The position numbers were made by a program, and so were the translations under genes. 64,000 nucleotides of DNA from the IMG/VR virus record IMGVR_UViG_3300012979_000039, positions 9,055 through 73,054 of that record; one strand, written 5' to 3'. The notes beneath the pieces are model-generated. The model saw nothing but the letters and a program-made list of their open reading frames with translations, did not search any database and was not told the DNA's origin. The DNA comes from a virus. Its lineage: Duplodnaviria; Caudoviricetes. Shown here piece after piece: positions 1,334-52,974 of this stretch. The number at the start of each line of letters is the position of its first letter. Position 1 is the first letter of the stretch.

Positions 1334-1783
1334 ATGGGTGTAAGTGTAAAGAAACCAAAGATAAAGGACTTTATGAGAGCCTGTGAGGCAACAAAAGGAG
1401 ACCTCACGAAAATGGCTGTTGCGTTTAATGTCACGAGACGCACTGTTAGGAACTGGTGTAATGCTGATGCAAGATTTCAGGAGGCATTGGACGAGTACCG
1501 CGGCCGTTCTCTTGACGAGTGTCTTAACAGGGCAAAGCAACTTGCTCTTGGCATTCCGAAGATTGTAGAGAAGGATGGAAAGCAGGTCATTGCCGGGTGG
1601 ATTGAAAAGCCGGACGGATATATGCTTCGCTATCTTATTGGCAAGCTCGGCAAGGATGAAGGCTTCGGCGAGAGCATTGACATCACAAGCAAGGGTGAGA
1701 GCATCAAGCCAGACCCAATCGTCATTGAGGTTATCGACAGCAGGGACAAAGTTGCTAAATCAAGCGAAGAAACAGAGGAGTAA
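1334..1783 (+). CDS. terS: Terminase small subunit
   Basis: N-terminal HTH-like segment, DITSKGESI tail typical of TerS, position upstream of terL. Confidence 0.7.
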   Translation: MGVSVKKPKIKDFMRACEATKGDLTKMAVAFNVTRRTVRNWCNADARFQEALDEYRGRSLDECLNRAKQLALGIPKIVEKDGKQVIAGWIEKPDGYMLRYLIGKLGKDEGFGESIDITSKGESIKPDPIVIEVIDSRDKVAKSSEETEE

Positions 1784-2646: not shown

Positions 2647-3837
2647 ATGCCGAAGATACAGGTAAATAGGGTTTATCACGAGATAGAGAGTGCATATAAG
2701 GCAGGCTATACAACCGTATCAGAACAAGGATCATCCCGCAGCGGAAAAACGATGAATACAGTTATATGGCTTGTCGTGTTTCTCTTAATGCATCCGGGGC
2801 TGTTGCTTTCTGTTGTGCGAAAGACGCTACCGGCTCTTAAAGGTTCAGTATTAAGGGACTTTAAGGAAGTAATGCTCAATATAGGCGTATGGAACGATAA
2901 GTCGTTCAACAAGTCAGAACTTATCTATACATTCCCTAACGGCAGTCAGATAGAGTTTTTTAGTACAGATGACGAGCAGAAAATCCGCGGACGAAAGCGA
3001 CATATCCTGTATGCTAATGAAGCTAATGAACTTGCGGAGATTGAGTGGCAGCAGTTGAAGATGCGTACCACGATGTTCTCCATTATGGACTATAACCCTT
3101 CGTTCTCCGAGGAGCATTGGATTAATGCAGTTAACGCAGACCCTCGAACCTATCACTTTATCACGACATACAAAGACAATCCGTTCCTTGAGCAGACGGT
3201 CATTGACGAAATCGAAAGCCTCAAGTACAAGAACAAGACGCTCTGGCAGGTCTATGGACTGGGACTACGTGCGATTGTCGAGGGACTTGTGTTCAAGCAT
3301 TTTGACATCGTTGACGAGGTGCCCGAATATGCCAAAAAGAAGCGTTGGAGAGGTATGGATTTTGGGTTTTCATCAGATCCAACAGCCATTATTGATGTCT
3401 TTCCTTACCAAGATATCTTATATGTTGATGAACTCTGTTACAACACGGAAATGCTTACTACTGATATAGTGCAGGTATTAAAAGCAAATGACCCTCTTGT
3501 TGAAACAATCTCTGAGAGTGCTGACCCCCGACTGATACAGGAAATCTACCGTGCGGGAATCAATATACACCCTGTTCATAAATTCCCTGGTAGTATTGAG
3601 GCAGGAATCACGAAACTTCTTGAGTTTAAAATTAAAATTACAAAGAGGAGTTTTAATCTGATAAAGGAGTTCAGAAATTACACATATGCTCAAGACAAGG
3701 AGGGAAAGTGGCTGAATAAGCCAGTGGACTGTTGGAATCACGGAATCGACAGCTTACGCTATGTCTGCCTTATGAAGATTCTCGGCGGCAAACCACGCCC
3801 TGTAAACCTCTCGAAGATAGCAAATAAGGCATACTAA
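2647..3837 (+). CDS. terL: Terminase large subunit, PBSX-like
   Basis: Walker A GSSRSGKT, Walker B YANEANE, nuclease motifs GMDFGFSSDP and NHGIDSLRY. Confidence 0.93.
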   Translation: MPKIQVNRVYHEIESAYKAGYTTVSEQGSSRSGKTMNTVIWLVVFLLMHPGLLLSVVRKTLPALKGSVLRDFKEVMLNIGVWNDKSFNKSELIYTFPNGSQIEFFSTDDEQKIRGRKRHILYANEANELAEIEWQQLKMRTTMFSIMDYNPSFSEEHWINAVNADPRTYHFITTYKDNPFLEQTVIDEIESLKYKNKTLWQVYGLGLRAIVEGLVFKHFDIVDEVPEYAKKKRWRGMDFGFSSDPTAIIDVFPYQDILYVDELCYNTEMLTTDIVQVLKANDPLVETISESADPRLIQEIYRAGINIHPVHKFPGSIEAGITKLLEFKIKITKRSFNLIKEFRNYTYAQDKEGKWLNKPVDCWNHGIDSLRYVCLMKILGGKPRPVNLSKIANKAY

Positions 3838-3861
3838 GTGATTGTAATGTAAATATTTTGT

Positions 3862-3869
3862 TATCTTTG
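3862..3869 (+). promoter_or_regulatory. Bacteroidetes -7 promoter element upstream of portal
   Basis: TATCTTTG matches TAnnTTTG in the terL-portal gap. Confidence 0.5.
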
Positions 3870-3929
3870 CGTGGTGATTACGATATAATCATAATAGTTT
3901 CAAAGGCACATCCAAGACATTCTCCACAG

Positions 3930-5402
3930 ATGAAAGACATCCAAGACATCATTCGCAGAGCCAAAGAGGGACAAGATGTTGTGTCCGAACTTATGGCAAA
4001 ATCTGTTTCAGTCCCAAGTTGGGAACTTGCACTCAAGTACGAATACGACACAAGGTTACACCCGGTTATGAATAAAGAGAAATATCCTGACATAGTGCTG
4101 TATGAGGAAAGAGTGTCGGAAACGGATGTTGACGAATACGGCAGACCGAAAGCCGTCAAAGTGGCTACCGGAGTAGAAAAGGTCAGCCGTGTGACTTATG
4201 ACCTTATGAGGCTCGCCGTCAAGAGAACGACAGAGCTGTGTTTTGGTATTCCTATCAAGCGCATCTACAAGCCGGAGAAAGATAACGAGAAGCAGAAAGA
4301 GATTGCCCGTTACCTCGAAAATATATTCCAGAGGAATAGAATCAACTCGGTCAATATAGACCGAAGCAACAAACTGTATTCGTCTTGCGAGGTCGCTACT
4401 ATCTGGTATGCTGTCAGGGAGGATAATAATTACTATGGGTTCAACAGCAAACTAAAACTCCGCTGTGCTACTTATTCTCCTATGCAGGGCGACAGCATCT
4501 ATCCACTCTATGATGAAACGGGCGACCTTGTTGCTCTGTCGTTTAAGTACACTCGCAAGGTTGCAGATAAGGATGTGTCATTCTTCGACACATATACCGC
4601 CGATACTCATATCGCTTGGAGCAATACAGGGGAACTTGGTTGGAGCCTTAGCGGACAAGTAGAGCCGATTGCTATTGGCAAGATTCCGGCAGTGTATCGC
4701 TACCGCAGACAGCCTGCATGGGAAGACCGTGCGCCGATTGTCTATGAAATGGAATGGGCGGTCAGCAGAAACGGAAACTATCTCAGGACAAACAGCAGAC
4801 CTATCCTTATGGCGGCGGTCAATGAGGAGGTAGGCTATGGTAACGAGCCGAAAGCAGATGCGGCATTCCGCGATATTGTCCAGTACCCACAAGGCTCGAC
4901 GCTCCAGTATGTGACTTGGAACCAGGCAATCGACAACCTCAAGTTCTATGTCGAGGAGTTGAAGCAGTCGTTCTTCACTCAGCTGCAGCTCCCTGACTGG
5001 AGTTACGAGAACATGAAGACAAGCCCGATGTCGGGCGAGGCTCGCAAGCAGCTCTTTATCGACTGCCACCTCAAAGTGAAAGACGAAGCTGGCGACTGGA
5101 TTGAGTTCTTTGACCGCGAGGTAAATGTGGTAAAGGCGTTCCTCAAGCAGATGCTCCCACAGGACTGGCACAATGATATTGACGCTCTCGTTGTGGAGAA
5201 TCAGATGACCCCTTACATCATTGACGACCGCAAGGAAGATGCAGAGATCCTTCTACTCAAGAACGGACAGAAGCCGCTGATGTCGCAGCGTGAGTCAATC
5301 CAGGCACTCGGCGAAAGTGAGGATGTGGATGCTACTCTTGCGGAAATCCAGCAAGAAAGTGCCGCTTCTTTGGTGTCTGACGCACTTGGACTTGCACAAT
5401 AA
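3930..5402 (+). CDS. Portal protein (SPP1 gp6-like)
   Basis: Follows terL; ~490 aa; SGEARKQLF and SQRESIQALG motifs; ATG 3930 preferred to TTG 3858. Confidence 0.85.
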   Translation: MKDIQDIIRRAKEGQDVVSELMAKSVSVPSWELALKYEYDTRLHPVMNKEKYPDIVLYEERVSETDVDEYGRPKAVKVATGVEKVSRVTYDLMRLAVKRTTELCFGIPIKRIYKPEKDNEKQKEIARYLENIFQRNRINSVNIDRSNKLYSSCEVATIWYAVREDNNYYGFNSKLKLRCATYSPMQGDSIYPLYDETGDLVALSFKYTRKVADKDVSFFDTYTADTHIAWSNTGELGWSLSGQVEPIAIGKIPAVYRYRRQPAWEDRAPIVYEMEWAVSRNGNYLRTNSRPILMAAVNEEVGYGNEPKADAAFRDIVQYPQGSTLQYVTWNQAIDNLKFYVEELKQSFFTQLQLPDWSYENMKTSPMSGEARKQLFIDCHLKVKDEAGDWIEFFDREVNVVKAFLKQMLPQDWHNDIDALVVENQMTPYIIDDRKEDAEILLLKNGQKPLMSQRESIQALGESEDVDATLAEIQQESAASLVSDALGLAQ

Positions 5403-5481: not shown

Positions 5482-8400
5482 ATGGCAGAAACCCCGAAAA
5501 ACCCCGTTATTCTTGATTCTTTTGACAAGAAGCATTTGCAACAGATAGCGGCACTTGAAAACAAGGTAGCCGCTATCTATGCTGAACTGTGCAAAGAGGT
5601 CGGGGTAGTCGGAACGCTGTTCGGTGGTAAAGTGGACTTGGAAAAGGTCTTTAAACTCGGCGACTATCCTGAAATCAATAAGAAAGTTGACCAGATTATC
5701 GAAAGCCTACACGACAGGCTCGGCTCGGCAATCGTTGATGGAGTGACGGCTCAATGGCAGCTCGCTAACGAGAAGAACGATGACCTTGTGCGAAAGGTGT
5801 TCGGCAAAGACCTTGACAACCTTACGGAAGACCAGATAACGCGGTATTTTACAAGCAATCAATCGGCTCTTGACGCATTTCTCAAGCGAAAGGACAAAGG
5901 GCTGGGGTTGTCTCAAAAAGTGTGGAAGTATGCGAAAGAAGCGAAAGTGGACATTGAAAGTGCGCTCGAACTTGGAATCAAGACAGGGCAGTCCGCATCG
6001 TCAATGGCAAGAGACCTCAAGCAGTATCTCAAGGAGCCGGACAAACTGTTTAGGAGAGTACGCGACAAAGAAGGAAAACTGCACCTATCGAAAGCAGCAC
6101 AAGCATACCACCCCGGACGAGGAGTGTACCGAAGCAGTTACAAGAACGCCCTCCGTCTTGCGGTGACGGAGGCAAATATGGCTTACCGCGCATCTGACTA
6201 TGAGAGGGTGCAGAACTTTGACTTCGTTGTGGGTATTGAAGTGCGGTTATCAAACAATCATACACTTAACGGAAAGCCTTTCTACGACATCTGCGACGAA
6301 CTCAAGGGCAAGTATCCAAAGGACTTCAAGTTCAGAGGCTGGCATCCGTTCTGCTATTCAAAGGATTCAGAAGTGCTGACAGCACAAGGCTGGAAGAAAT
6401 TTGCCGATGTTACATTTGAGGATTCTATCATTTCCCTTAATCCGGAAACAAGAGAGGTTGAATATGTTGGCATAACAGCCAAGCAGCAGTATTGGTATGC
6501 AGGACTTATGTGCCGGTTCTATAATAAGACGCTCGACTGTCTTGTTACTCCTGACCACTCTATGGTGTATCTTAATAAGCGTGACGGAGAAATTAGAAAC
6601 TGCCAGGCAAAGGACTATACAAAGGGCAAAGGAGGGTTCTATCGCTCTGCAATGAATAGCACACAAGATAGACCTCATATCTGCATTGGTGGTTCCTGCT
6701 ATAAGTTTGACGCATTCTGTGAGTTTATGGGCTATTGGCTTTCTGACGGAAGTCTTGAACATAATAGTGGCGTTAGTATATCTCAGAATGTAGGGGAGAA
6801 AGCGAGAGAAGACATTGTAGCGTGTGTCAAGAGACTTGGCTTTGAACCTAAGTTGAGAAACGATAAGGTGCTGTTCTATAATGCACGATTCAATGCTTAT
6901 CTCAAGCAGTTTGGATATAGTTACACGAAATATGTTCCAGAAGAGATAAAGACCGCTTCTGCTCGACAGATAAAGATATTCCTTGACGCTTTTATCAAGT
7001 GTGACGGTCACGAAAGACCTTGTAAATCGTTTGTCGGTAATCACGGCAATGTGTTTGCATCGCAGAATGGAGAGAAGATGTATTTTACAACCTCTCCAAG
7101 AATGGCAGGTGATTTGTGCGAGTGTATGCTTAAAGTAGGGCACAGGCCAAGTGTTGCTGTTAGTGAACCACATACAGCAGTCAAGAAAGATGGCACAATC
7201 ATTCAAGGAAACAAGCCGCATTATTCGATAAGGGAGTGCGGGTCTATTACCTCTACTGTGTTCGACAAAGAGGAAGTGGGATACTCTGACTATGTATATG
7301 ATTTGACCCTTGAAAGGAATCACATTATGTACATCAAGAGGAATGGAAAGTGCTTTTGGGGTTCAAACTGCCGTTGCCACGCAATTACTATCCTCAAGAC
7401 AAGGGAAGAACTTATGGCTGACAACGAGCGTATCCTTGACGGGCAAGAGCCTACCGAGGAAAGCGTAAACTCTGTGAATGACTTGCCTGATAATTTCAAG
7501 GCTTGGGCGGTCAAGAACAAGAGCCGAATCCTCGCAGCTGACGAAAGGGGCACTCTCCCTTACTTTATTACCGACAACCCATATAGCGTGAACAGCGCAA
7601 TCGGTCAGCCTTTGGCAAGTATCAAGGTGCCGCTTTGGTATGCCCATAACGCACAGGTCAAGGAGGTGCAGGGTAAGCTCAAGGAAATCAAGTCATGGAC
7701 TCTGGAACACCCTAAGGCAAAGAAGTTTGTTGGCCAGATCAATGATGTGGAATCGGCGATTGCTAACGGAGCCTCTATTGAGGATATATTGGCTCAATTT
7801 AATATTCTGGACCATGATTATAAGTTTAGGGTAAGCCACGATGCTTATTTAGCACGAAAGAAAGCGGAAGCAGCCAAGAAGCCTACCGCCCTTGATATTG
7901 CGAAGAAGCGTCACGAAAGCAGAACGCAGGAGCAGATTGACAAGATTAGAGTTGAGTGGGGCAAAAGAACTATCAGACAACTTAATCAGGCTATTGATGA
8001 CGGATTGCTGCCACAGGAAGTATTCGGCAAGACCGGCGATATGTATATGATGCTTAAGGAAGGTAACTTTGGTGCATTCAACAAGGCTGCATTACCTCTG
8101 CAGAAGGCTATCGCAAGACATAAGGCACGAACCCCTGAAATTAAGAAGGCAATACAAGACGCTTGGGACTTCCGTAAAGAGGCAATCCTCAAGGACGAGC
8201 AGTTCCTCTCTGCTCTCATTCCTAATGTCAAGGATTGGAAGAAGCAGTTTAGCAGCAAGAAACTCCACGAGGTTTACGATGCCGTTGAGAAGAAGATGGC
8301 TCAAATCAATGCACTTCCTCTTGATCAGCAGATTAAGGCTCTTAACAAGGAAATCCTGTATGTGTCCGATGCGACATATCTCAAGCCTCATACTCTCTAT

Positions 8401-9453
8401 CCTACTTGGCAGGTGTCACAGGCCGCTTATTATAAGCAACTTGGTGCAGTCCAGTACAAGATTAGCGTCAAAGGTGTTCAAGATACTCTTAAACCTATCA
8501 ATGATTGGTTAGCGAATCATCCGAAGGTCAAAAAGCTTGCAGGATTGGTTGATGAGGTCGAAGACCTTATCAATAGCGGAGCTGATATTAGCACAATCAA
8601 TGCAAAACTCTCGTCGGTTACTGCCGAATACAAGAATAAACTTTATGATGAACAGCATGCTGCGAAACTTAAAGCAAAGAAACTGAACAAGGCGAGTGAG
8701 TCTTTTGATGATTCAATATTTACGAAAGAGAAAAGAGATAATGCCGTTTGGCATAAGACAGCGAAAGAGGCGGACGACTACTTCCATGAAAACGCAGTGG
8801 AGTTTTGGACCAAAGTTACTCAACAAGAGAAAGAAGCATTATGGGGTTACACAGCGGGTTCTGGCTATATCACAGAGCCGCTACGAGCAATCCCAGGGCA
8901 TTATTACTATTATTCAAGTAAGTTCAAGAAAACTGAAAACCATATTCAGTGGCTTACAGATGCACTACATAAGCAGCACTTAAAAGATGATACGTGGTTA
9001 AAAAGAGACTCTGACCCTTGGAATATTGATTATATATTCAAGATTGATCTTAGTAAGTATAAGAAAGACCCTTCTGCTTTGGTGGGTAAAGTTGGACTTG
9101 AAGATAGCTTCCAATCTTGCGGTTCTTGTAGGGAGACAAGGTTTACGGCAACTGGACCAAAGAAAGTCATAATGAATCTCTATTGTCCGAAAGGCACTCC
9201 GGCAGCTTATGCACAGCCTTGGTCATCTTGTGGTACATATGGCCAGAGTTGGGATGGAATAAAGAAAGCTAATCCTGAACCTTGGAGTGAAAACGAAGTG
9301 CTATTGCAGCGAGGCGCAAAGATGCGAATTACTAAAGCGGAATATGATAGTGTTAGCGATATGTGGTATATTGATGTTGATGTGATAGGATTTGATATAC
9401 GAGACTTTGACTTGATACAGGAATCTTCTGGATATTATTGCAGATATAAGTAG
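5482..9453 (+). CDS. MuF/SPP1 gp7-like minor head protein with intein and C-terminal ADP-ribosyltransferase
   Basis: After portal; GWHPF|CRC MuF motif split by an intein; C-terminal YTAGSGYITEPLR, KRD, FQSC and ENEVLLQRG (R-S-ExE ART). Confidence 0.88.
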   Translation: MAETPKNPVILDSFDKKHLQQIAALENKVAAIYAELCKEVGVVGTLFGGKVDLEKVFKLGDYPEINKKVDQIIESLHDRLGSAIVDGVTAQWQLANEKNDDLVRKVFGKDLDNLTEDQITRYFTSNQSALDAFLKRKDKGLGLSQKVWKYAKEAKVDIESALELGIKTGQSASSMARDLKQYLKEPDKLFRRVRDKEGKLHLSKAAQAYHPGRGVYRSSYKNALRLAVTEANMAYRASDYERVQNFDFVVGIEVRLSNNHTLNGKPFYDICDELKGKYPKDFKFRGWHPFCYSKDSEVLTAQGWKKFADVTFEDSIISLNPETREVEYVGITAKQQYWYAGLMCRFYNKTLDCLVTPDHSMVYLNKRDGEIRNCQAKDYTKGKGGFYRSAMNSTQDRPHICIGGSCYKFDAFCEFMGYWLSDGSLEHNSGVSISQNVGEKAREDIVACVKRLGFEPKLRNDKVLFYNARFNAYLKQFGYSYTKYVPEEIKTASARQIKIFLDAFIKCDGHERPCKSFVGNHGNVFASQNGEKMYFTTSPRMAGDLCECMLKVGHRPSVAVSEPHTAVKKDGTIIQGNKPHYSIRECGSITSTVFDKEEVGYSDYVYDLTLERNHIMYIKRNGKCFWGSNCRCHAITILKTREELMADNERILDGQEPTEESVNSVNDLPDNFKAWAVKNKSRILAADERGTLPYFITDNPYSVNSAIGQPLASIKVPLWYAHNAQVKEVQGKLKEIKSWTLEHPKAKKFVGQINDVESAIANGASIEDILAQFNILDHDYKFRVSHDAYLARKKAEAAKKPTALDIAKKRHESRTQEQIDKIRVEWGKRTIRQLNQAIDDGLLPQEVFGKTGDMYMMLKEGNFGAFNKAALPLQKAIARHKARTPEIKKAIQDAWDFRKEAILKDEQFLSALIPNVKDWKKQFSSKKLHEVYDAVEKKMAQINALPLDQQIKALNKEILYVSDATYLKPHTLYPTWQVSQAAYYKQLGAVQYKISVKGVQDTLKPINDWLANHPKVKKLAGLVDEVEDLINSGADISTINAKLSSVTAEYKNKLYDEQHAAKLKAKKLNKASESFDDSIFTKEKRDNAVWHKTAKEADDYFHENAVEFWTKVTQQEKEALWGYTAGSGYITEPLRAIPGHYYYYSSKFKKTENHIQWLTDALHKQHLKDDTWLKRDSDPWNIDYIFKIDLSKYKKDPSALVGKVGLEDSFQSCGSCRETRFTATGPKKVIMNLYCPKGTPAAYAQPWSSCGTYGQSWDGIKKANPEPWSENEVLLQRGAKMRITKAEYDSVSDMWYIDVDVIGFDIRDFDLIQESSGYYCRYK
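6352..7368 (+). mobile_element. Intein (339 aa) with LAGLIDADG homing endonuclease
   Basis: Starts CYSKDSEVLT, ends YVYDLTLERNH...GSN followed by +1 Cys; LAGLIDADG-like blocks FMGYWLSDGS and FLDAFIKCDG. Confidence 0.9.
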
Positions 9454-10528: not shown

Positions 10529-10635
10529 ATCCGTGTAGTATTTATGGTTTATTTCGTTTTTCTTTCTTATGTAATAGGTTTATACCTTTTTGTCTTTTGA
10601 ACCGTGCAAAGACGAGCAATACAGCTCTTGCAGGG

Positions 10636-10643
10636 CAAATTTA
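10636..10643 (-). promoter_or_regulatory. -7 promoter element for the ARH gene
   Basis: TAAATTTG followed by CCCTG on the minus strand, the same context as the repeated early promoter. Confidence 0.5.
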
Positions 10644-10661
10644 ATAAATAGTTCGCAAGAG

Positions 10662-10919
10662 CTAAACTTTATTTAAGGCTTCCTTGAGTGCTTCGATAAG
10701 CTCCAGGTGGTCATACGACCTGTTCAAGTCAATCCCATTTACTATGTGCGGTTCTCCTGCGAGTTCCATTGCTGTGATCGGTCTGTCTTTCTGCGCAATC
10801 TGCCAACGGGTGCCATAATCTATTGGCACGAAAGTGAACAGGTAATAGTCGCCTCCGTTTCTTTTGTTCCATTCTCTGAACAGCTGTGAGAGATATTGGT
10901 TAATTCCGTTGATATTCAT
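10662..10919 (-). CDS. Hypothetical protein
   Basis: Part of a tightly packed minus-strand operon. Confidence 0.6.
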   Translation of the reverse strand: MNINGINQYLSQLFREWNKRNGGDYYLFTFVPIDYGTRWQIAQKDRPITAMELAGEPHIVNGIDLNRSYDHLELIEALKEALNKV

Positions 10920-31800: not shown

Positions 31801-34800
31801 TGCGGAGGACGCACGTAGTGCTGCCGAGAAGGCTCAATCTATTGCTAACAAGGCCCAAGATGCTGCCGAACTTGCACAGACAGCAGCAGCCGAAGCAAAG
31901 AATGAGGTTCAGGAAGCGGCATCAGTTCTTGATGTCTGGGCGTCTGACGATTATATCTCTCCGATGGAGCAGACCGTGCTGAGGGAACTTCTTGCACAGA
32001 TAAAGTCCGAGTACACGCAGATAATCAACGACGCGGACAGATACGGAGTCAGCAAGACATCATACATGTCCGCTTACAATTCGGCAGTTACCGCTTTGGA
32101 GAAATATACCAAAGCCACTTCTGACGGTTCAAGCATAGTTGTTGGCAGCGACTATGCCAACATATCGGCTTACTATACAGCAAAGGCGACTATCCTTGAC
32201 AAGATAGCATCAGAGGTAAAGGAAGAGGCGGACAAGGCAGTTGGAGACGCGGAATCCGCAGCCGCCAGTGCCGCAGCAGCAGACGCAAAGGCCGCAGCAG
32301 CAGCCAGTGCCGCAGCCGCCGCCAATGCAGTTGCGGAGAATGCGAAGTCCATTGCAGACGCAGCAGCAGAAAACGCGAACAAAGCAATACAGGATTCGGA
32401 AGATGCCAAGGAGACGGCAAACAATGCCGCAAACATAGCCGGGAATGCGGAGACACTGGCTGGGGAGGCACAAAGGATTGCTGATGAAGCCCAAGGCGTT
32501 GCTGATGAAGCCAAGCAGGACGCCCAGGATGCCCTTGCTGATGCTCAGGAGGCTCTTGCCAATGCCAACGATGCAAAGAACGACGCCACTTCCGCGAAGC
32601 AAATGCTTGAAGAACTGACGGCGGACGGAATGATAACACCTGTCGAGAAGCAGTCCTTGAAGAATGAACTGGCCCAGATCAATGCAGACTATGCCGATGT
32701 CAGGAACGAGGTAGACAAGTATGTCATTGACAACGAGACATCGCTCTGGAATGCGTTTGACAATGCGTATGACTTGTACAGGGAGGACCTTGAAAGTAAG
32801 ATTAACGCCGGGGGCAGTGTAGAAGCAGGTAACATAACAGAGTTGCAGGTGGCCTATTATTCGGCAAGGACAGCCCTGCTGAATGCGATATATGTTGCTG
32901 CGAAGAAAGCGGCTGACGATGCACAACAGGCGGCTGACGATGCACAAAAGGCGGCCGATGACGCACAACAGGCTGCGGACGACGCAAAGAAAGCGGCTGG
33001 CGAAGCGGCTGAGCAGGCCCGTCAGGCATATGAATTGGCGAATACTATTGATGCCGCCACCAAGACGCTTGATGCCAAGATTGGTGATGTGGAGACGGGT
33101 CTGCTTGAAGAAGTTGACGAAATCAACAAGAAACTTGACGGTGTTGTAGAGAACTACTTTGAGGAGGGAGCACCTGCTATTGACAAGTACCCGTCATCAG
33201 AGTGGGTGACAGACACAGACAAGAAGAACCACCTCGGAGACACATACACGAACATCGAGGAGTATGTGGACAATGAGACAACTCCGGATGCCGGAAAGTC
33301 TTGGAGGTGGACCTACACGGATAGTGAGCATACTGGCTATCATTGGCATCCGATTGCTGACAGTGATGCGGTCAAGGCTCTTCTCGCCGCTTCCAAGGCT
33401 CAAACGGCCGCTGACGGAAAGTCCCGTACATTCGTTGATCAGCCGTACCCGCCTTATTCCGTAGGCGACTTGTGGGTGCAGGGTGACGAAGGAGAAATAA
33501 TGAAGTGTGTGCGTGCAAGAAGCGAAGGCTCATATGACGCTTCCGATTGGGCGAAAGCCTCCAAGTACACAGATGACACGGTAGCCAATCAGGCGTTGGC
33601 GTTAGCGAATGAGGCCAAGAATGAGGCAGGGGATGCGAACAGTGCAATTAACATTCTTGTCAGCACGACCCTTCCAGCATTGGAGGATGGAATAATCACG
33701 GAGGCTGAAAAGATAGCCATAGGCAAGTACATCAACATTGTAGAGAATGAGATGAATGAAGTCACTGCTACCTATGACAAGTTGTCCGCTCACCCGTTGA
33801 TTACTGATGTGGCAAAGTCCGCCCTGACAATTGCATACAACAATGTGAAGGTAGCTGTTCAGACTCTGATTAACGGAATCAATGGAGCCATTCTTGAAGA
33901 GCCTACGCATACTCCTGCCAATGTGGACTTCTTATATGACACCTATAAGACAAAGTATGCTGCTTACAGCACAGCCATTGAGTCCGCGTATGCTGCCATT
34001 GAAGATGTTATCAACGGCAAGGCGGAGGAGGCAAAGGAAACCGCAGATGCGGCGAAGGTTGCAGCGGATGCCGCCAAACTTGCTACGGATAACCTTGATG
34101 ATGACACGAAGTTCACGGTAGCGGAGAAGAGGACATTGAGGAAAGCACTCAAAGATATCAACACAAGCGAGACTGCAACGGTCAATCAGTTGATGTATGA
34201 GGTGACAGAAAGAAGCGTGGTCCTTGGCAATGCATGGAAGAAGATTACCGACAAGGCGGACAACAACTATCGGTGGTATGTGTCAGACATGCACACAGCG
34301 TCTTCGGCTTCCATTACCAAGGTAGCCTTTACGGTCAACACCAAGTGTGATGTGAGGTTCAGACTGATGTCAAGAGCGGAAGGAAACTACGATTATGCCA
34401 TGTTGAGCAAACTGGATACCACGCTTGCTTCAAGTGCCGTATATAACTCCGCATCCGTAGTAGCTCATACGAGAGGCAAGCAGGGTACTATCGTCTATCA
34501 CACCTTTGAGGATGTTGCTCCAGGAACCCACTTCGTGACCATAAGTTTCAGAAAGGACGGAAGCGGAAACACTGAGCCGGATAACGGCTACTACTATGTC
34601 GAGGACTTCGGCATGGATCCCGGAAGCCTCGGTGACTGGTATGGCCTTGTGTTGAGCAAGGGAATGAACGAAGCATTATGCGTACCTGCCGTCAATGCCG
34701 CCAACGCCCTGTTCAAGTATCTGTACGACAACGGAGTCTGGACGAATGTCACCACAGATGTGGAGGACGGATTCAGGGAGAAGGTGTTCTCTCTGTTCCA

Positions 34801-36813: not shown

Positions 36814-38055
36814 ATGAACACAGTATTATTGAACACGGTGCATCTTGACGGTGCACCTATCGTAAAGAAAGTCTCTGGTGAGGGTGGTGGTAGTACCATC
36901 CTCAATCAGAGCAAGAGTGTAGAGATTACCGAGAACGGGAGTGTATCGGTGACTCCAGATGCCGGATATACTGGCTTGAGCAAGGTGGATGTCAATGTAG
37001 ATGTCCCCACTCAAGAAATTAGCAACCAAGACAAGGCAATAGACATCGTTGAGAACGGCACTACTGAGATTGTAGCGGATGCAGGTTACACAGGTCTTGG
37101 GAAGGTATCCGTTAATGTCAATGTCGCTTCAAGCGGTGGTGGAAGTGGATGGACAGGTCACGCAGATGCGGAAGGCTTGAAGGCCATCGGTTGGACTGAC
37201 GAGGATATTGCTTACTACCAAGAGCATGGTGTGAATTGGAATGCAGAGGATGACGAGTATCACAAAGTAACTGATGACAACAAGGCTTTGTATGGGGTGT
37301 TGACTGCGGATAATATACAAACCTACAAGGATAGGATTGTGTATCTTCCAAAGATTGATACGAGTGGTGTGACGAATACAACCAGCATGTTCTACAACTG
37401 CTATTCCCTTGTAAGTATTCCACAGTTGGATACAAGCAATGTGACGAATACAACCAGCATGTTCAACAACTGCTATTCCCTTGTAAGTATTCCACAGTTG
37501 GATACAAGCAATGTGACGAATACGAACAACATGTTCAACAACTGCTATTCCCTTGTAAGTATTCCACAGTTGGATACAAGCAATGTGCGGGATATGCACC
37601 ACATGTTCAACAACTGCTATTCCCTTGTAAGTATTCCACAGTTGGATACAAGCAATGTGACGAATACGAACAACATGTTCTACAACTGCTATTCTCTCAC
37701 ATCAATTCTACAGTTGGATACAAGTAGAGTGACTTCTGCGGGTTATATGTTCTACAACTGCAACTCTCTCACATCAATTCTACAGTTGGATACAAGTAGA
37801 GTGACGAGTATGTATGGTATGTTCTATGGCTGCTTCTCTCTCACACATGCCAACCTTAAAGGTGTAGCAAAAGCATATCAGTTGAATAACTCCGCTCTTT
37901 TGAGCAAGGAATCCCTCCTCTATCTTATTGACAACGAGGCGGCAACATCGGCTATCACTATCAAACTCGCAGCCTACGCATACGAAAGACTTGCAGAGGA
38001 TGCTGATGTAGTAGCGGCACTCGCTAATCATCCTAACATTTCAATAGCACAGTAA
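36814..38055 (+). CDS. BspA/DUF285-type leucine-rich-repeat adhesin (candidate receptor-binding protein)
   Basis: Seven 24-aa repeats (P/L)QLDTSNVTNxxxMFxNCYSLxSI; duplicated NQxKx.xI.ENG....DAGYTGL motif. Confidence 0.85.
   Translation: MNTVLLNTVHLDGAPIVKKVSGEGGGSTILNQSKSVEITENGSVSVTPDAGYTGLSKVDVNVDVPTQEISNQDKAIDIVENGTTEIVADAGYTGLGKVSVNVNVASSGGGSGWTGHADAEGLKAIGWTDEDIAYYQEHGVNWNAEDDEYHKVTDDNKALYGVLTADNIQTYKDRIVYLPKIDTSGVTNTTSMFYNCYSLVSIPQLDTSNVTNTTSMFNNCYSLVSIPQLDTSNVTNTNNMFNNCYSLVSIPQLDTSNVRDMHHMFNNCYSLVSIPQLDTSNVTNTNNMFYNCYSLTSILQLDTSRVTSAGYMFYNCNSLTSILQLDTSRVTSMYGMFYGCFSLTHANLKGVAKAYQLNNSALLSKESLLYLIDNEAATSAITIKLAAYAYERLAEDADVVAALANHPNISIAQ
37346..37845 (+). repeat. Seven tandem 72-bp coding repeats
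   Basis: Units start at 37346, 37418, 37490, 37562, 37634, 37706 and 37778; units 2-5 nearly identical. Confidence 0.92.
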
Positions 38056-45751: not shown

Positions 45752-46987
45752 TTACTTGCTTTTTCGGTAATCCTTGCCGTAAAATATATAGTCTATTATC
45801 TTTCTGTTTGCGTCATCTACAAGGTCGTTGTCGTAATCTATATATATATCAGTTACTTTCAATCCGAAACTGTGCCCCATGCCTCTGCTTATCACCTCTT
45901 TGGATATGCCTATCTTCATTGCTACGGTAGCCCAAGTGTGGCGTGCCCAGTTTGAACTCAAGTCCGGGAAGATGCCTTTCCCAAGAATCTTGCCGCGTTT
46001 GCCGAGCGGTCTGCCGATAGCCTTGAGCCCGTCATTGAAATGATGTAGATAGTCCTTATAGTCGTCATACGAGTCCATAGGGTTGAGCAAGGTACCTCTG
46101 CCTTTGTACTTTTCAATGATCGCGATTGCCTCTGGCTCCAGTTTGACAGACAGAGGTGTTCCCGTCTTGTTTCTTCGGTAATCTAACCTGCCGTTGGACA
46201 CCTGCTGTGCAGTAGCAAGGAAAAGGTCTCCGGCATTGATTCCGCGAAGAAGGAACATGAGGATAAACATATCGCGATACTGCTCTTGATAAGGCTCGCA
46301 CTTGGCATTTAAGAGGCTTTTGAGTTGTTCCGGCATAAGTGCCTTCTTCCGCGTATTCTCTTGTCTTAACGGGTACTTTCTGAAAGGATACAAGGTTGTT
46401 ATGCCCGCGTTGATTGCATCGTTGAATACGGCTCTTATGTTTCTCAGGTGGATATTCCTGCTGTTCTTCTTCTCTGTCTTGGAACAAAAGGACTCGAACT
46501 CCCGAAGATAGTCGTTGGTTATATCCTCAAACGAGCGGGTTGCAAGATTAGAGTCATATGCTTCTAACTTTCGGAGAGTATAGGCATACAGCCCTCTTGT
46601 CCCGTCATTGCCCTTCAGTTCCATGAAGCGAACAAAACGGAATCGGAACATATGGCTTTCCTCTATTTTCCGCTTCTTGTCAGGGTCTATGATGTCAATT
46701 ATCTTGTCACGAAGTTGATATGCAGTTAATCCTCCGCTTTCCCCGTTTTCCACCAGCCGCAGGATAGCGGAATCTATCTCCAATCTCTTCTTGTTAAGGA
46801 TAAGATTGATTCTTTTGGCATTCGGATGATTTACCACCTCCTTTCTTGTCGTACTCCACTGTTGCACTGTTACCTTGATACCTGTATTGATATAAGCCGC
46901 CTTGCCGTTCTTCCGTATAGCAAATTTCAGAGGAACCGGTTGATTTTCCTGAACCGCTCTGGCGTCGAAGTAGATTGTTATTGTCAT
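45752..46987 (-). CDS. int: Tyrosine integrase (Bacteroidetes type: arm-binding, SAM-like and catalytic domains)
   Basis: LLRGINAGDL, RNKTG, ARHTWAT, MGH and IYI catalytic motifs; start at ATG 46987 (MTITIY). Confidence 0.93.
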   Translation of the reverse strand: MTITIYFDARAVQENQPVPLKFAIRKNGKAAYINTGIKVTVQQWSTTRKEVVNHPNAKRINLILNKKRLEIDSAILRLVENGESGGLTAYQLRDKIIDIIDPDKKRKIEESHMFRFRFVRFMELKGNDGTRGLYAYTLRKLEAYDSNLATRSFEDITNDYLREFESFCSKTEKKNSRNIHLRNIRAVFNDAINAGITTLYPFRKYPLRQENTRKKALMPEQLKSLLNAKCEPYQEQYRDMFILMFLLRGINAGDLFLATAQQVSNGRLDYRRNKTGTPLSVKLEPEAIAIIEKYKGRGTLLNPMDSYDDYKDYLHHFNDGLKAIGRPLGKRGKILGKGIFPDLSSNWARHTWATVAMKIGISKEVISRGMGHSFGLKVTDIYIDYDNDLVDDANRKIIDYIFYGKDYRKSK

Positions 46988-47137
46988 ATCCCGCACTGAT
47001 TTTGCACTTTCTTCTCCCTTAAAATGGAAAAAAATGGAAAGAAATGCTCTTTTTTTTGACCGGGATAGTCTTGAAATGAGGGGAAAAATAAAGCGATTGA
47101 CCGTTATAACTAACTGATAATCAATCGCTTTATAGGT

Positions 47138-47181
47138 GTGATTCGGTTGGGATTCGAACCCAAGACCCACAGCTTAGAAGG
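47138..47181 (-). other. att core: 3' half of tRNA-Arg(UCU)
   Basis: Minus strand CCTTCTAAGCTGTGGGTCTTGGGTTCGAATCCCAACCGAATCAC contains the anticodon loop, T-arm and acceptor strand; no D-arm or 5' half. Confidence 0.85.
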
Positions 47182-50636: not shown

Positions 50637-50951
50637 ATGGAATATAAAGAAATTACAATAAAGCTCCCAATCATCAAAGTAAAGCAGAATGTGGATATAT
50701 ACTCCTATGATTGGGCAAAAGATAATACCCCAGAGGGAATGTATATTGTTGACAACGGTATAATTCGTTTCCTTTGCTCTAGACACTTGGATTATTCTCC
50801 GAGTTGTATGGAACTGCCGACCGGTATCATCGACTCTGCTATTGCTCACGAAGTTCAAGAAACAACATTGGTGCAAGTCCTCGCAGCTCTCAATTCAATG
50901 CTCGAAGCCCTTAAAGACAATTCTGACAAGATAAGAGAGGCGAAAAAATAG
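50637..50951 (+). CDS. Hypothetical protein
   Basis: ATG 50637; operon. Confidence 0.55.
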   Translation: MEYKEITIKLPIIKVKQNVDIYSYDWAKDNTPEGMYIVDNGIIRFLCSRHLDYSPSCMELPTGIIDSAIAHEVQETTLVQVLAALNSMLEALKDNSDKIREAKK

Positions 50952-51194: not shown

Positions 51195-51295
51195 ATCGGG
51201 TAGGCTGTACTACCTTAATACGAGGGAATTTTCCACTCGGAAAGACTGTCTAACTAGTTGCTATACAGCTACAGCACGCCCCACATCGTTTTATC
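51195..51295 (+). ncRNA. Guide-RNA scaffold copy A (single-guide/omega-RNA-like) upstream of dCas12f
   Basis: GGTAG-GCTGTA-CTACC hairpin whose loop is complementary to downstream TACAGC (51264..51269 and 51270..51275); paralogous to 52467..52514. Confidence 0.65.
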
Positions 51296-51305
51296 CTAAA
51301 TCGCT

Positions 51306-52457
51306 ATGGTTATCACAAGAAGAATTGAAGTCTTTATCTGCGAGGATGATAAAGACCTCCGTAAGTCGTATTACGAAAAACTCTACGACAACAGTAAGGC
51401 GGCAGTCGCTACCGCTAATATGGCTATCTCGCATTTGTATATGCTTGACAATACAACCCCTTATCTCTCGGAAGAAGATAGAGAGAAGATAGTCTATCTC
51501 GGAGCAAAGGGAAGTGCTGCAACAAGAAACAATGCACCCTATGTCAAGGCTTCCGAGATGTTCAAAGGAAAGGCGGATATGGGTATGCTTTCCTGCGTAT
51601 GTCAGGAAGTACGAAAGGTCTATCAGGACGACCGAAAGAAAGGAATGTGGAATAGGTCACTCCGTTCATATAAGGCGAATATGCCAATGCCGTTTAAGGC
51701 GGAAAGATTCTGTGATCTTCGCATTTCCGAATATCACGATAAGGAAGATACTGTCCGCAAAGGGTGCCTCTTCACTCTTATGGGTATCCCTTTCCAATGT
51801 AGATTCGGCAGGGATAGGAGTAACAACAGAGTGATTGTGGAAAGAGTCATAGAGGGAGATTACAAGATGTGTACATCTTCCATTCAGATTGATGGGAAGA
51901 AGATATATCTGCTTTTGCGTGTCGATATTCCTGTTCAGGAACATAAACTGACAGAGGGTAAACAGATATTCGCCTTCCTTGGAGTAATGAATCCTATTGT
52001 ATGCACTACGGATATAAATTATAATCTCTGTGGCGAGAGCAAGACCAAGAGTGTTGTTTGGGAGATAGGAACAAAGGAAGAGTTCAACTATCGCAGAAGG
52101 CAGATTCAGGAAGCGGTTTGGAGATGTCAGAAGCAGAACAAATATAGCACGGGAGGTAAGGGCAGAAAGAGGAAGTGTCAGGCAATAGAACGATACCACG
52201 AAAAGGAAATGAACTATGTAGACACGAAACTCCATACTTATTCCCGTGAACTGGTGGATTTAGCCATCAAGCACAAGTGTAGTGAGATAGTTCTCATGTC
52301 GCAGAAGAAGAGGGAAGAGAAAGCCAAGAAGGACAACGCAGTTGAAGAGAAGAACAATCATGAAGAGTTCGTCCTTCGCAACTGGTCTTACTATGGCTTG
52401 AAGGAGAAGATTTCCTACAAGTGTAAGATGGCCGGGATTAAGTTGATAGAAGAATAA
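51306..52457 (+). CDS. cas12f: Nuclease-dead Cas12f/TnpB-like RNA-guided DNA-binding protein
   Basis: RuvC-I FAFLGVMNP (D replaced by F), bridge helix ..YVDTKLHTYSRELV, RuvC-II IVLMSQ (E replaced by M), LRNWSYYGLKEKISYKCKMAGI; ends before the Zn finger/RuvC-III; adjacent CRISPR array. Confidence 0.85.
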   Translation: MVITRRIEVFICEDDKDLRKSYYEKLYDNSKAAVATANMAISHLYMLDNTTPYLSEEDREKIVYLGAKGSAATRNNAPYVKASEMFKGKADMGMLSCVCQEVRKVYQDDRKKGMWNRSLRSYKANMPMPFKAERFCDLRISEYHDKEDTVRKGCLFTLMGIPFQCRFGRDRSNNRVIVERVIEGDYKMCTSSIQIDGKKIYLLLRVDIPVQEHKLTEGKQIFAFLGVMNPIVCTTDINYNLCGESKTKSVVWEIGTKEEFNYRRRQIQEAVWRCQKQNKYSTGGKGRKRKCQAIERYHEKEMNYVDTKLHTYSRELVDLAIKHKCSEIVLMSQKKREEKAKKDNAVEEKNNHEEFVLRNWSYYGLKEKISYKCKMAGIKLIEE

Positions 52458-52466
52458 AGACAATAT

Positions 52467-52555
52467 ATCGGGGTGGTTGCACACCCTTAACGGGAGGATT
52501 TCTCACTCCTGAAATACCTTTACGAAAGTGGTTTGTAGGTAGTTATGTCGGATAG
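52467..52555 (+). ncRNA. tracrRNA-like scaffold copy B / array leader
   Basis: GGGTG-GTTGCA-CACCC hairpin with loop complementary to the repeat end TGCAAC; ATACCTT complementary to repeat AAGGTAT. Confidence 0.7.
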
Positions 52556-52747
52556 GTTGTAAATACCTATAAAACTTAAGGTATATGCAACTCCTCTGTG
52601 TTTATGGAAAATTCAATCTGTTGTAAATACCTATAAAAACTCAAGGTATATGCAACATCGGAGAAAACTTGCCCTCATAAAGACGGTTGTAAACACCTAT
52701 AAAATTCAAGGTATATGCAACAACAGCCACAAACTACAATATGCAAC
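52556..52747 (+). CRISPR. CRISPR mini-array: 3 full repeats, 2 full spacers and a degenerate end
   Basis: Repeat GTTGTAAATACCTATAAAACTTAAGGTATATGCAAC at 52556..52591, 52620..52656 (37 nt) and 52686..52721; spacers of 28 and 29 nt; remnant ATATGCAAC at 52739..52747. Confidence 0.92.
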
Positions 52748-52794
52748 GAGGACAATTTTATCTTATCTAAACAAATTGTTTAATAAATAGGCAA

Positions 52795-52974
52795 ATGGAA
52801 ATATTAAAAAAAGGAACAACTGAACATTTCCCGAAAAGGAAGTTTACTTGCCCCGACTGTGGGTGTGTATATATAGCGAAATGGAACGAGGTAAATAAGT
52901 TTCCAATACCTCATACTATTTGCCCGACCTGTGAAAGACAAATAGATTGGGCGGACGGTGCGGATATAGAATAA
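52795..52974 (+). CDS. Small zinc-ribbon protein (59 aa) missed by the ORF track
   Basis: CPDCGC ... CPTC; ATG..TAA read by hand. Confidence 0.7.
   Translation: MEILKKGTTEHFPKRKFTCPDCGCVYIAKWNEVNKFPIPHTICPTCERQIDWADGADIE

Follow-up and report, generated by a model that had tools for sequence, protein, structure and literature searches.

The closest described relatives of the system treated here are the nuclease-dead Cas12f (dCas12f) proteins of Bacteroidota that, together with sigma-E, carry out RNA-guided transcription (Hoffmann et al., Nature 2026, PMC13472631; structures 9n9c/9n9m, 10.1101/2025.06.10.658880). A second group of dCas12f, associated with CRISPR arrays and lacking rpoE, has been proposed to act as repressors (PMC13472631, Extended Data Fig. 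1a,b); its published examples are chromosomal, such as one in a Chitinophagaceae metagenome-assembled genome with a resistance-nodulation-division (RND) efflux promoter as target, and phages are not mentioned among them (PMC13472631). Here we describe a dCas12f gene and CRISPR mini-array within a stretch of 64,000 nucleotides (the window), which comprises bases 9055–73054 of the 73,054-bp IMG/VR phage record IMGVR_UViG_3300012979_000039, rated complete by CheckV. An initial annotation, made from the letters of the window without database searches, had placed the locus at 51306–52747. Gene and array do lie within those bounds, while the functional locus is larger: it starts at 51195 with an upstream single-guide RNA, and it includes a scaffold at 52467–52555.

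As judged from its sequence, the system is a self-contained, phage-borne and nuclease-dead derivative of type V-F, made up of the protein, a scaffold-fused mini-array and an orthogonal single-guide RNA. We propose that dCas12f silences a competing or parasitic element by RNA guidance, without cutting, and assign this reading a probability of about 0.65. The targets had been expected to be external, and spacers 1 and 2 of the array indeed match one gene of a foreign element. A search of the literature found no report of a phage-encoded dCas12f.

The window system and the sigma-E-associated dCas12f belong to the same lineage (34–38% identity) and to one dead clade, are truncated at the same point, have lost the RuvC residues, and carry the guide at the 3′ end of the scaffold. 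The window system differs in being carried by a phage, in lacking an rpoE or hth partner, and in having a true array of 28–29-nt spacers, which turn over in relatives, together with a tracr-like scaffold. Its targets are inside a gene of a foreign element, whereas those of the sigma-E system are upstream of host susCD-type operons. With the rpoE-less, CRISPR-associated group it shares a dead Cas12f beside arrays, a covarying guide RNA or scaffold 5′ of the arrays, and the absence of a sigma factor; it fits that group by description; the published examples are chromosomal and the window's is phage-borne.

A phage CRISPR system directed against a satellite is known from ICP1, whose type I-F CRISPR-Cas acts against the PLE satellite in Vibrio cholerae (PMC9040626, PMC8263062, PMC8844924). 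In both cases effector and array are borne by a phage and spacers are directed against a small integrative element, which in the case of PLE parasitises phage packaging. The class 1 system of ICP1 is complete, cuts DNA and includes adaptation genes, whereas the window encodes a single nuclease-dead class 2 protein and no Cas1, and the satellite relationship is here a putative one. As the sole effector is nuclease-dead, interference by the window system must act without cleavage. Virus-borne mini-CRISPR arrays were reportedly implicated in interviral conflict by Medvedeva et al. in 2019. Cas12m is known to interfere without cleavage (PMC10442227), and spacers are acquired in trans by type IV-A3 systems of plasmids (10.1101/2023.06.23.546257). 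The window system resembles all three in the mobile-element-borne silencing of rivals, the lack of adaptation genes of its own and the changing arrays, and differs from them in its effector family and in that effector, scaffold and array are all carried by the phage. Prophage TldRs (10.1101/2023.11.30.569447) are likewise nuclease-dead, C-terminally truncated, RNA-guided members of the TnpB/Cas12 lineage borne by temperate phages, and act by DNA binding. Their direct ancestor is TnpB, and each relies on a single fixed omega-type guide to a host promoter (fliC), whereas the window system is derived from Cas12f, has arrays and is aimed at a mobile element.

In 2026 dCas12f was described as a chromosomally encoded sigma-E partner by which bacterial genes are switched on; the window locus presents the same lineage in a phage setting with changing arrays. 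If silencing is its role, it would be the second kind of phage CRISPR system aimed at a satellite, after ICP1–PLE, and the first unable to cut. The locus also supplies natural guide–target pairs for the study of dCas12f without a sigma partner, and a first way into the study of possible phage satellites in Prevotella and Bacteroidales. At 383 aa the protein is compact, and with its two orthogonal natural scaffolds it is of practical interest for CRISPR interference tools.

A dead Cas12f and its guide RNAs

The dCas12f gene (51306..52457, + strand) is an intact open reading frame (ORF) of 383 aa. Its best solved relative, found by phmmer against the PDB, is 9n9c, 'Nuclease-deactivated Cas12f' (E 2.9e-54, residues 4–381), followed in the sequence search by the active Cas12f 9nzo (E 1.4e-34) and then by CnCas12f1 and AsCas12f; the NCBIfam model guided_TnpB matches at E 1.5e-20, under its curated cut-off. 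A first AlphaFold model built from 20 close homologues was unusable, with a predicted local distance difference test (pLDDT) score of 45, and was superseded by one from a deeper alignment of 63 diverse homologues (pLDDT 89.3, predicted template modelling score (pTM) 0.81). The initial annotation had tied the assignment to a structure search, which should return Cas12f or TnpB. A Foldseek search with the second model did so, placing dCas12f 9n9c/9n9m at the top (E 1.6e-30, TM-score (TM) 0.66–0.72) and AsCas12f, CnCas12f1, Al3Cas12f, Cas12k and TnpB at lower ranks. The window protein thus has the WED-REC-RuvC fold and the homology of the Cas12f/TnpB superfamily, and it lacks the RuvC D-E-D triad and C-terminal Zn finger of active type V-F Cas12f.

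These losses are illustrated when the window protein is aligned with 119 family representatives, drawn from a search of 1.8 billion proteins that gave 691 matches at E<1e-3. In active members RuvC-I has vDLGi and RuvC-II has E, and the chain continues for 50–120 aa beyond the end of the window protein. The latter has F224 in place of the RuvC-I Asp, M331 in place of the RuvC-II Glu, and no tail past residue 383, so that it ends before the Zn finger and RuvC-III, at a point that coincides with the end of the dead family members. The earlier reading that all three RuvC acidic positions are lost from an otherwise intact ORF therefore holds. In a FastTree phylogeny, 84 dead, truncated proteins stand apart from a 36-row clade that includes all 28 active proteins (support 98), a split that would be consistent with one inactivation event. 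Homologues are numerous, with more than 800 intact, 120 of them at ≥66% identity, and the mean column identity among the close ones is 77%. By sequence and by predicted fold, the protein is a dead Cas12f.

Immediately 3′ of the gene is a tracr-like scaffold RNA (52467..52555, + strand) with a stem 1 whose loop reads GTTGCA, a stem 2 and a third hairpin, and the start of the array is joined directly to it. The array contains three repeats of 36–37 nt with a period of 65 nt, each of which folds into a hairpin, and all of its elements are on the + strand: repeat 1 (52556..52591), a palindromic hairpin with 3′ end TGCAAC; spacer 1 (28 nt, 52592..52619); repeat 2 (37 nt, 52620..52656); spacer 2 (29 nt, 52657..52685); repeat 3 (52686..52721); and a truncated 17-nt spacer followed by a 9-nt repeat-end fragment (ATATGCAAC; 52722..52747). 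A tail of this kind, a short spacer with a repeat-end fragment, is also present in the relatives L012, L010 and L005. An uncertain fourth guide may follow the fragment (52748..52770, + strand); no match to it was found. The locus would accordingly possess the array and trans-activating CRISPR RNA (tracrRNA) of a type V-F CRISPR-Cas12f system.

Upstream of the gene lies a shorter paralogue of this scaffold (51195..51269, + strand), with a stem 1 loop GCTGTA, a stem 2 and a short linker ending in TACAGC. It is fused directly to a guide of ~19 nt, which we call guide A, and a T run (51270..51292, + strand), so that the whole single-guide unit spans 51195–51292. The start of guide A is ambiguous, as TACAGC occurs twice and the guide may begin 6 nt later. 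The unit is kept in the 85%-identical relative L012, where guide A is identical over 21 nt and conserved while the array spacers differ from those of the window phage.

Support for both RNAs comes from covariation. Across 20 scaffolds of the window and its relatives, 11 of the 14 pairs predicted in stems 1 and 2 show compensatory double changes. Stem 1 has a 6-nt loop complementary to the final 6 nt of its cognate repeat or, in the upstream unit, to the 6 nt before the guide. Within the family the combinations of loop and repeat end are GCTGTA–TACAGC (24), GTTGTA–TACAAC (4), GCTGCA–TGCAGC (3) and, in the window array, GTTGCA–TGCAAC, with six additional pairs that contain G-U variants; the loop partner was chosen as the best within 260 nt, which favours complementarity, and the repeat ends are fixed independently by the arrays. 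The window thus carries two orthogonal sets, and the pairing is the pseudoknot-type contact expected of a Cas12f or omega-type guide. A search of the RNA genes against Rfam matched no family.

Targets of the guides

Inspection by eye had found no match longer than about 10 nt to any guide within the window, and this is borne out: elsewhere in the phage, no guide has a seed match of more than 9 nt. Exact 20-mers of spacers 1 and 2 gave no matches in IMG/VR, guide A matched there only a relative's own guide locus, and the arrays gave only noise against the INPHARED phages. In 401 Prevotella genomes the array and guide A stayed at chance level with no host-gene target, and the matches to guide A equalled those of a reversed-pattern control. 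For guide A, no target was found in the phage, IMG/VR or the 401 Prevotella genomes. Its last 13 nt coincide with the coding sequence of a conserved ITPHIAW motif in D-2-hydroxyacid dehydrogenases of many Prevotella genomes (among them L109 and L111); this candidate was set aside, as it does not rise above the reversed-pattern control.

A metagenome scan with spacer 2 returned one contig of 1,389 bp (L123). Both array spacers match it, and array spacers also match four further sequences (L124 by spacer 2, L125–L127 by both). Spacer 2 is identical at 29/29 positions in L123 and L124 and at 24/29 in L125–L127, while spacer 1 matches L123 at 25/28 positions, with its first 15 nt exact, and L125–L127 at 26/28, with its first 24 nt exact. 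The two matches are on the same strand of a single 199-aa ORF, ~426 nt apart, and our own binomial estimate for the chance of a second match within a 1.4-kb contig is ~3e-9. As the flanks of the L123 matches are not repeats, they are protospacers and not another array. L125–L127 hold a second allele of the 199-aa gene (88% identity), and the complementary quality of the matches in the two sets of sequences indicates that spacers 1 and 2 together cover both alleles. The 5′ flanks of the protospacers (TTTA, CTTG, TTCT) have in common a T at −3 and a pyrimidine at −2. Both spacers carry the antisense sequence of the ORF, which is without a family match.

The most complete view of the targeted element is provided by L125 (logan SRR24653748_120523), a contig of 7,545 bp that begins and ends with the same 28 nt, as a circular molecule would. 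Its genes encode a tyrosine integrase whose arm-binding domain is of the Bacteroidetes type, an HTH_17 excisionase-like protein and an HTH_39 protein, followed in order by a 138-aa ORF resembling a small terminase (TerS), the targeted 199-aa gene, small genes and an HTH_3 Cro-like gene. The 138-aa ORF, present in L123 and L125, is 49% identical over 135 aa (tblastn, E 1e-36) to a gene of the window phage, the 149-aa small-terminase-like gene at 1334..1783 (+ strand), which itself matches a small-terminase PHROG (E 2.3e-5) and is located 5′ of a radical-SAM gene. No capsid, portal or large-terminase gene was found in L125. A small terminase of helper-like type, together with an integrase and regulators in only 7.5 kb, is a hallmark combination of phage satellites; the element looks like one and is a candidate satellite of Prevotella-type phages. 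As in the conflict of ICP1 with PLE, phage-borne spacers here match a small integrative element that is without structural genes and carries putative packaging-hijack genes. The initial annotation had suggested that the system was aimed at host defence or receptor genes, or at competing elements; spacers 1 and 2 speak for the competing element, and no host-gene target came to light in the Prevotella genomes.

L125 also encodes a 206-aa protein whose C-terminus is 35% identical to a small ORF of the window phage (9471–9737, − strand) that adjoins the ADP-ribosylglycohydrolase region.

Mode of action and alternatives

We envisage that the scaffold and CRISPR RNA (crRNA) would be loaded by dCas12f, which is probably dimeric like its relatives, and that the complex would locate protospacers beside a T-containing 5′ flank such as TTTA, CTTG or TTCT. 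A stable R-loop would then form and the DNA would remain uncut, with the element hindered in its expression, replication or packaging. The element would most likely be a satellite or other small mobile element that exploits or competes with the phage, and the phage would thereby protect its own burst or lysogen.

Several points weigh against this proposal. RNA expression, ribonucleoprotein (RNP) formation, binding to DNA and repression are all inferred. The case for a satellite is circumstantial and any helper is putative, the TerS assignment draws on weak PHROG matches and gene position, and the 28-nt terminal overlap of L125 could reflect bounding repeats instead of a circle. No integrated copy of the targeted gene turned up in the 401 Prevotella genomes, and a search of IMG/VR did not find the gene either. 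Guide A, the 17-nt spacer and ~115 spacers of relatives are without an identified target. There is also the matter of orientation. For dCas9 and dCas12a, the roadblock is weaker when RNA polymerase meets the end distal to the protospacer-adjacent motif (PAM) first. Both window guides pair with the coding strand, so that RNA polymerase would meet the PAM-distal end first, and with both in the weaker orientation the system may act otherwise than by simply blocking elongation. The effect could instead fall on replication or packaging, or be exerted via antisense transcription if a sigma partner were available; the last is rated low, as no such partner was found.

An observation that bears on the proposal from both sides comes from a related 53-kb phage, G006 (locus L016, IMGVR_UViG_3300021256_000130), whose contig ends overlap inside the dcas12f gene, indicating that the genome is complete and circular. 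The first spacer of one of its arrays (50879–50907) matches its own major capsid gene (32051–32079) at 29/29 positions, a gene that adjoins those for the protease, portal and terminase. The guide reads as the sense strand of the capsid gene, the 5′ flank of the protospacer ends in G, and within IMG/VR both copies are confined to the G006 record. As cutting would be lethal, the self-spacer supports an effector that does not cut; it may be a tolerated accident of self-acquisition or a regulatory guide. In the latter case it could make gene regulation, and not conflict, the primary role. When ~120 spacers of relatives were compared with 19 full related phage genomes, the G006 self-match was the only unambiguous one.

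This observation bears on a regulatory role like that of TldR, in which guide A, and perhaps other guides, would tune host or phage late genes, with the match to the element secondary. The capsid spacer of G006 is perfect and in the orientation expected to block elongation, guide A is conserved in two phages whose array spacers differ, and host fliC is known to be repressed by prophage TldRs (10.1101/2023.11.30.569447). Yet the window phage has no self-target, guide A matches Prevotella genomes no better than its reversed control, the guides of a prophage in Prevotella sp. P2-180 have no match in their own host chromosome beyond chance, and the target indicated by both array spacers of the window is clearly a foreign element. 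We therefore regard a primarily regulatory role as unlikely.

The initial annotation had left repression and activation side by side. Activation would involve the recruitment of sigma and RNA polymerase to the R-loop, with transcription starting ~46 bp downstream of the target-adjacent motif, as described for the sigma-E systems (PMC13472631, 10.1101/2025.06.10.658880); on the targets found here the product would be an antisense RNA that reads back through the targeted gene and the TerS-like gene. Among solved structures, the nearest relative is a sigma-E-dependent dCas12f with the same C-terminal truncation point, and the common orientation of the protospacers would drive transcription antisense to the element's operon. 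Sigma-E-linked members also fall within the same dead clade, among them P0175, which is encoded directly 3′ of a 260-aa extracytoplasmic function (ECF) sigma on a 3.4-Mb chromosome, as in the published architecture (PMC13472631). The window protein is thus a truncated member of the dead clade as these systems have it, but the operonic ECF sigma with a C-terminal docking domain, and the hth gene, are missing, and both protospacers are inside a coding gene and antisense to it instead of upstream of genes as promoter substitutes. Neither a sigma-70 r2 or r4 domain nor a homologue of the dCas12f-linked sigma was found in the complete phage record, and the sigma C-terminal docking domain has just two marginal matches in the 401 Prevotella genomes (E 1e-4 and 6e-4, in ORFs of 166–171 aa). 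The published systems, moreover, have fixed single guides 5′ of genes and not arrays that turn over. With no sigma partner found, the activator half of the earlier suggestion loses ground, and we consider activation quite improbable.

Very doubtful as well is the idea that the dead protein recruits a separate phage or host nuclease or helicase, so that targets are destroyed after all. The truncated RuvC of a relative is completed by the C-terminal domain of its sigma (10.1101/2025.06.10.658880), so a docking surface may exist, and a 59-aa zinc-ribbon ORF lies 3′ of the array. Against this, G006 tolerates a perfect self-target, the zinc-ribbon ORF is unlike the Cas12f C-terminus and is not conserved in the nearest relative, and no neighbour gene is conserved across loci. 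Finally, we give hardly any credence to an RNA decoy that mimics repeats as an anti-CRISPR, or to a functionless, decaying TnpB/IS605 remnant: solitary repeats that mimic host CRISPR repeats are known in phages, and the protein is labelled a transposase by one source and by PHROGs, but the window's repeat was seen in no host array of the 401 Prevotella genomes, the repeats co-vary with the scaffold that adjoins the gene of their own effector, the >800 intact homologues are well conserved (77% mean column identity among the close ones), the spacers have real protospacers, and TnpA is absent.

Relatives and phage context

The proposed silencing of a competing element by dCas12f can also be set against the family as a whole, which includes 26 loci in IMG/VR and 7 in genome assemblies of Prevotella, Prevotellaceae, Bacteroides and Bacteroidales. 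Every context examined is phage-like, and one is a Mu-like prophage. Nearly all loci have mini-arrays, each with one to six repeats, and a phage often has several of them. Between near-identical phages of one metagenome the trailer spacer is common and the scaffold-proximal end differs, a pattern of polarised spacer gain which points to probable renewal of the arrays. No adaptation genes are present (Cas1 by profile) to account for such renewal. The absence of cas1, cas2 and cas4 had been noted for the window. For Cas1 it extends to the whole 73,054-bp phage, where no profile match was found; Cas2 and Cas4 were not searched by profile. A broader and more tentative proposal, which we regard as possible and no more, is that dCas12f and its renewable mini-arrays constitute an adaptive, non-cutting immunity of temperate Bacteroidales phages against satellites and small mobile elements, acting by silencing or by RNA-guided antisense transcription, and that phages were the reservoir in which dead Cas12f diversified before bacteria domesticated it, with sigma-E, as an activator.

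More distant dead members likewise lie in phage regions. P0135 (39% identity) adjoins a YqaJ gene, P0147 is among small early-type genes, and P0132 (L119, of another subclade) is between the large terminase and portal genes of a phage, which places the dead lineage in late as well as early phage modules.

The prophage of Prevotella sp. P2-180 (L009/L019) has four mini-arrays with scaffolds among its early genes, at 4640–4900, 6243–6480, 9157–9431 and 10547–10718. One of its spacers (L019:4713) resembles the antisense of the dcas12f 5′ end in other clades (L017/L032:5054–5071) at 17/18 positions, beside a T-rich flank, and its own dcas12f gene differs in the seed. This suggests, at a level that is not statistically secure, that phages target each other's dCas12f. 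In G027 a spacer partly matches the phage's own ImmA-like gene, and no full protospacer was found in IMG/VR. The Mu-like prophage (L003/L004), with a 68%-identical dCas12f, encodes at 710–955 a protein of the Acb2/Tad1-hairpin family, a family of counter-defence sponges. In the L020-clade phages G021, G024, G027 and G014, a motif of 19–28 nt (AAAAGTATATGAAATTCAT...) stands just 3′ of the array and recurs at several further sites on both strands of these genomes; it may be a regulatory or promoter-like element.

The host of the window locus is a Prevotella-type gut phage, and is temperate as indicated by a tyrosine integrase gene at 45752–47170 (− strand). A rightward early operon begins at ~48.3 kb with genes for a Mor-like protein, an HTH_17 protein, a PHROG-3657 protein, a YqaJ exonuclease and a single-stranded DNA-binding protein (SSB), and the dCas12f gene and array are located within it, in keeping with the placement first given. 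The packaging module occupies the left part of the window, where the small-terminase-like gene is accompanied by those for a UDP-glucose dehydrogenase, the radical-SAM protein, the large terminase (2647–3837) and the portal (3858–5402).

Directly 3′ of the array, at 52795–52974, the 59-aa ORF encodes a double-CxxC zinc ribbon that superficially recalls the lost Zn finger of Cas12f. It was rejected as a split-off Cas12f C-terminus, as it has no significant similarity to that region and is not kept in the nearest relative. Elsewhere in the window, the ORF at 36814–38055 contains a periodic direct repeat (37355–37843, ~50–70 nt spacing), which is a protein-coding repeat and not a CRISPR array.

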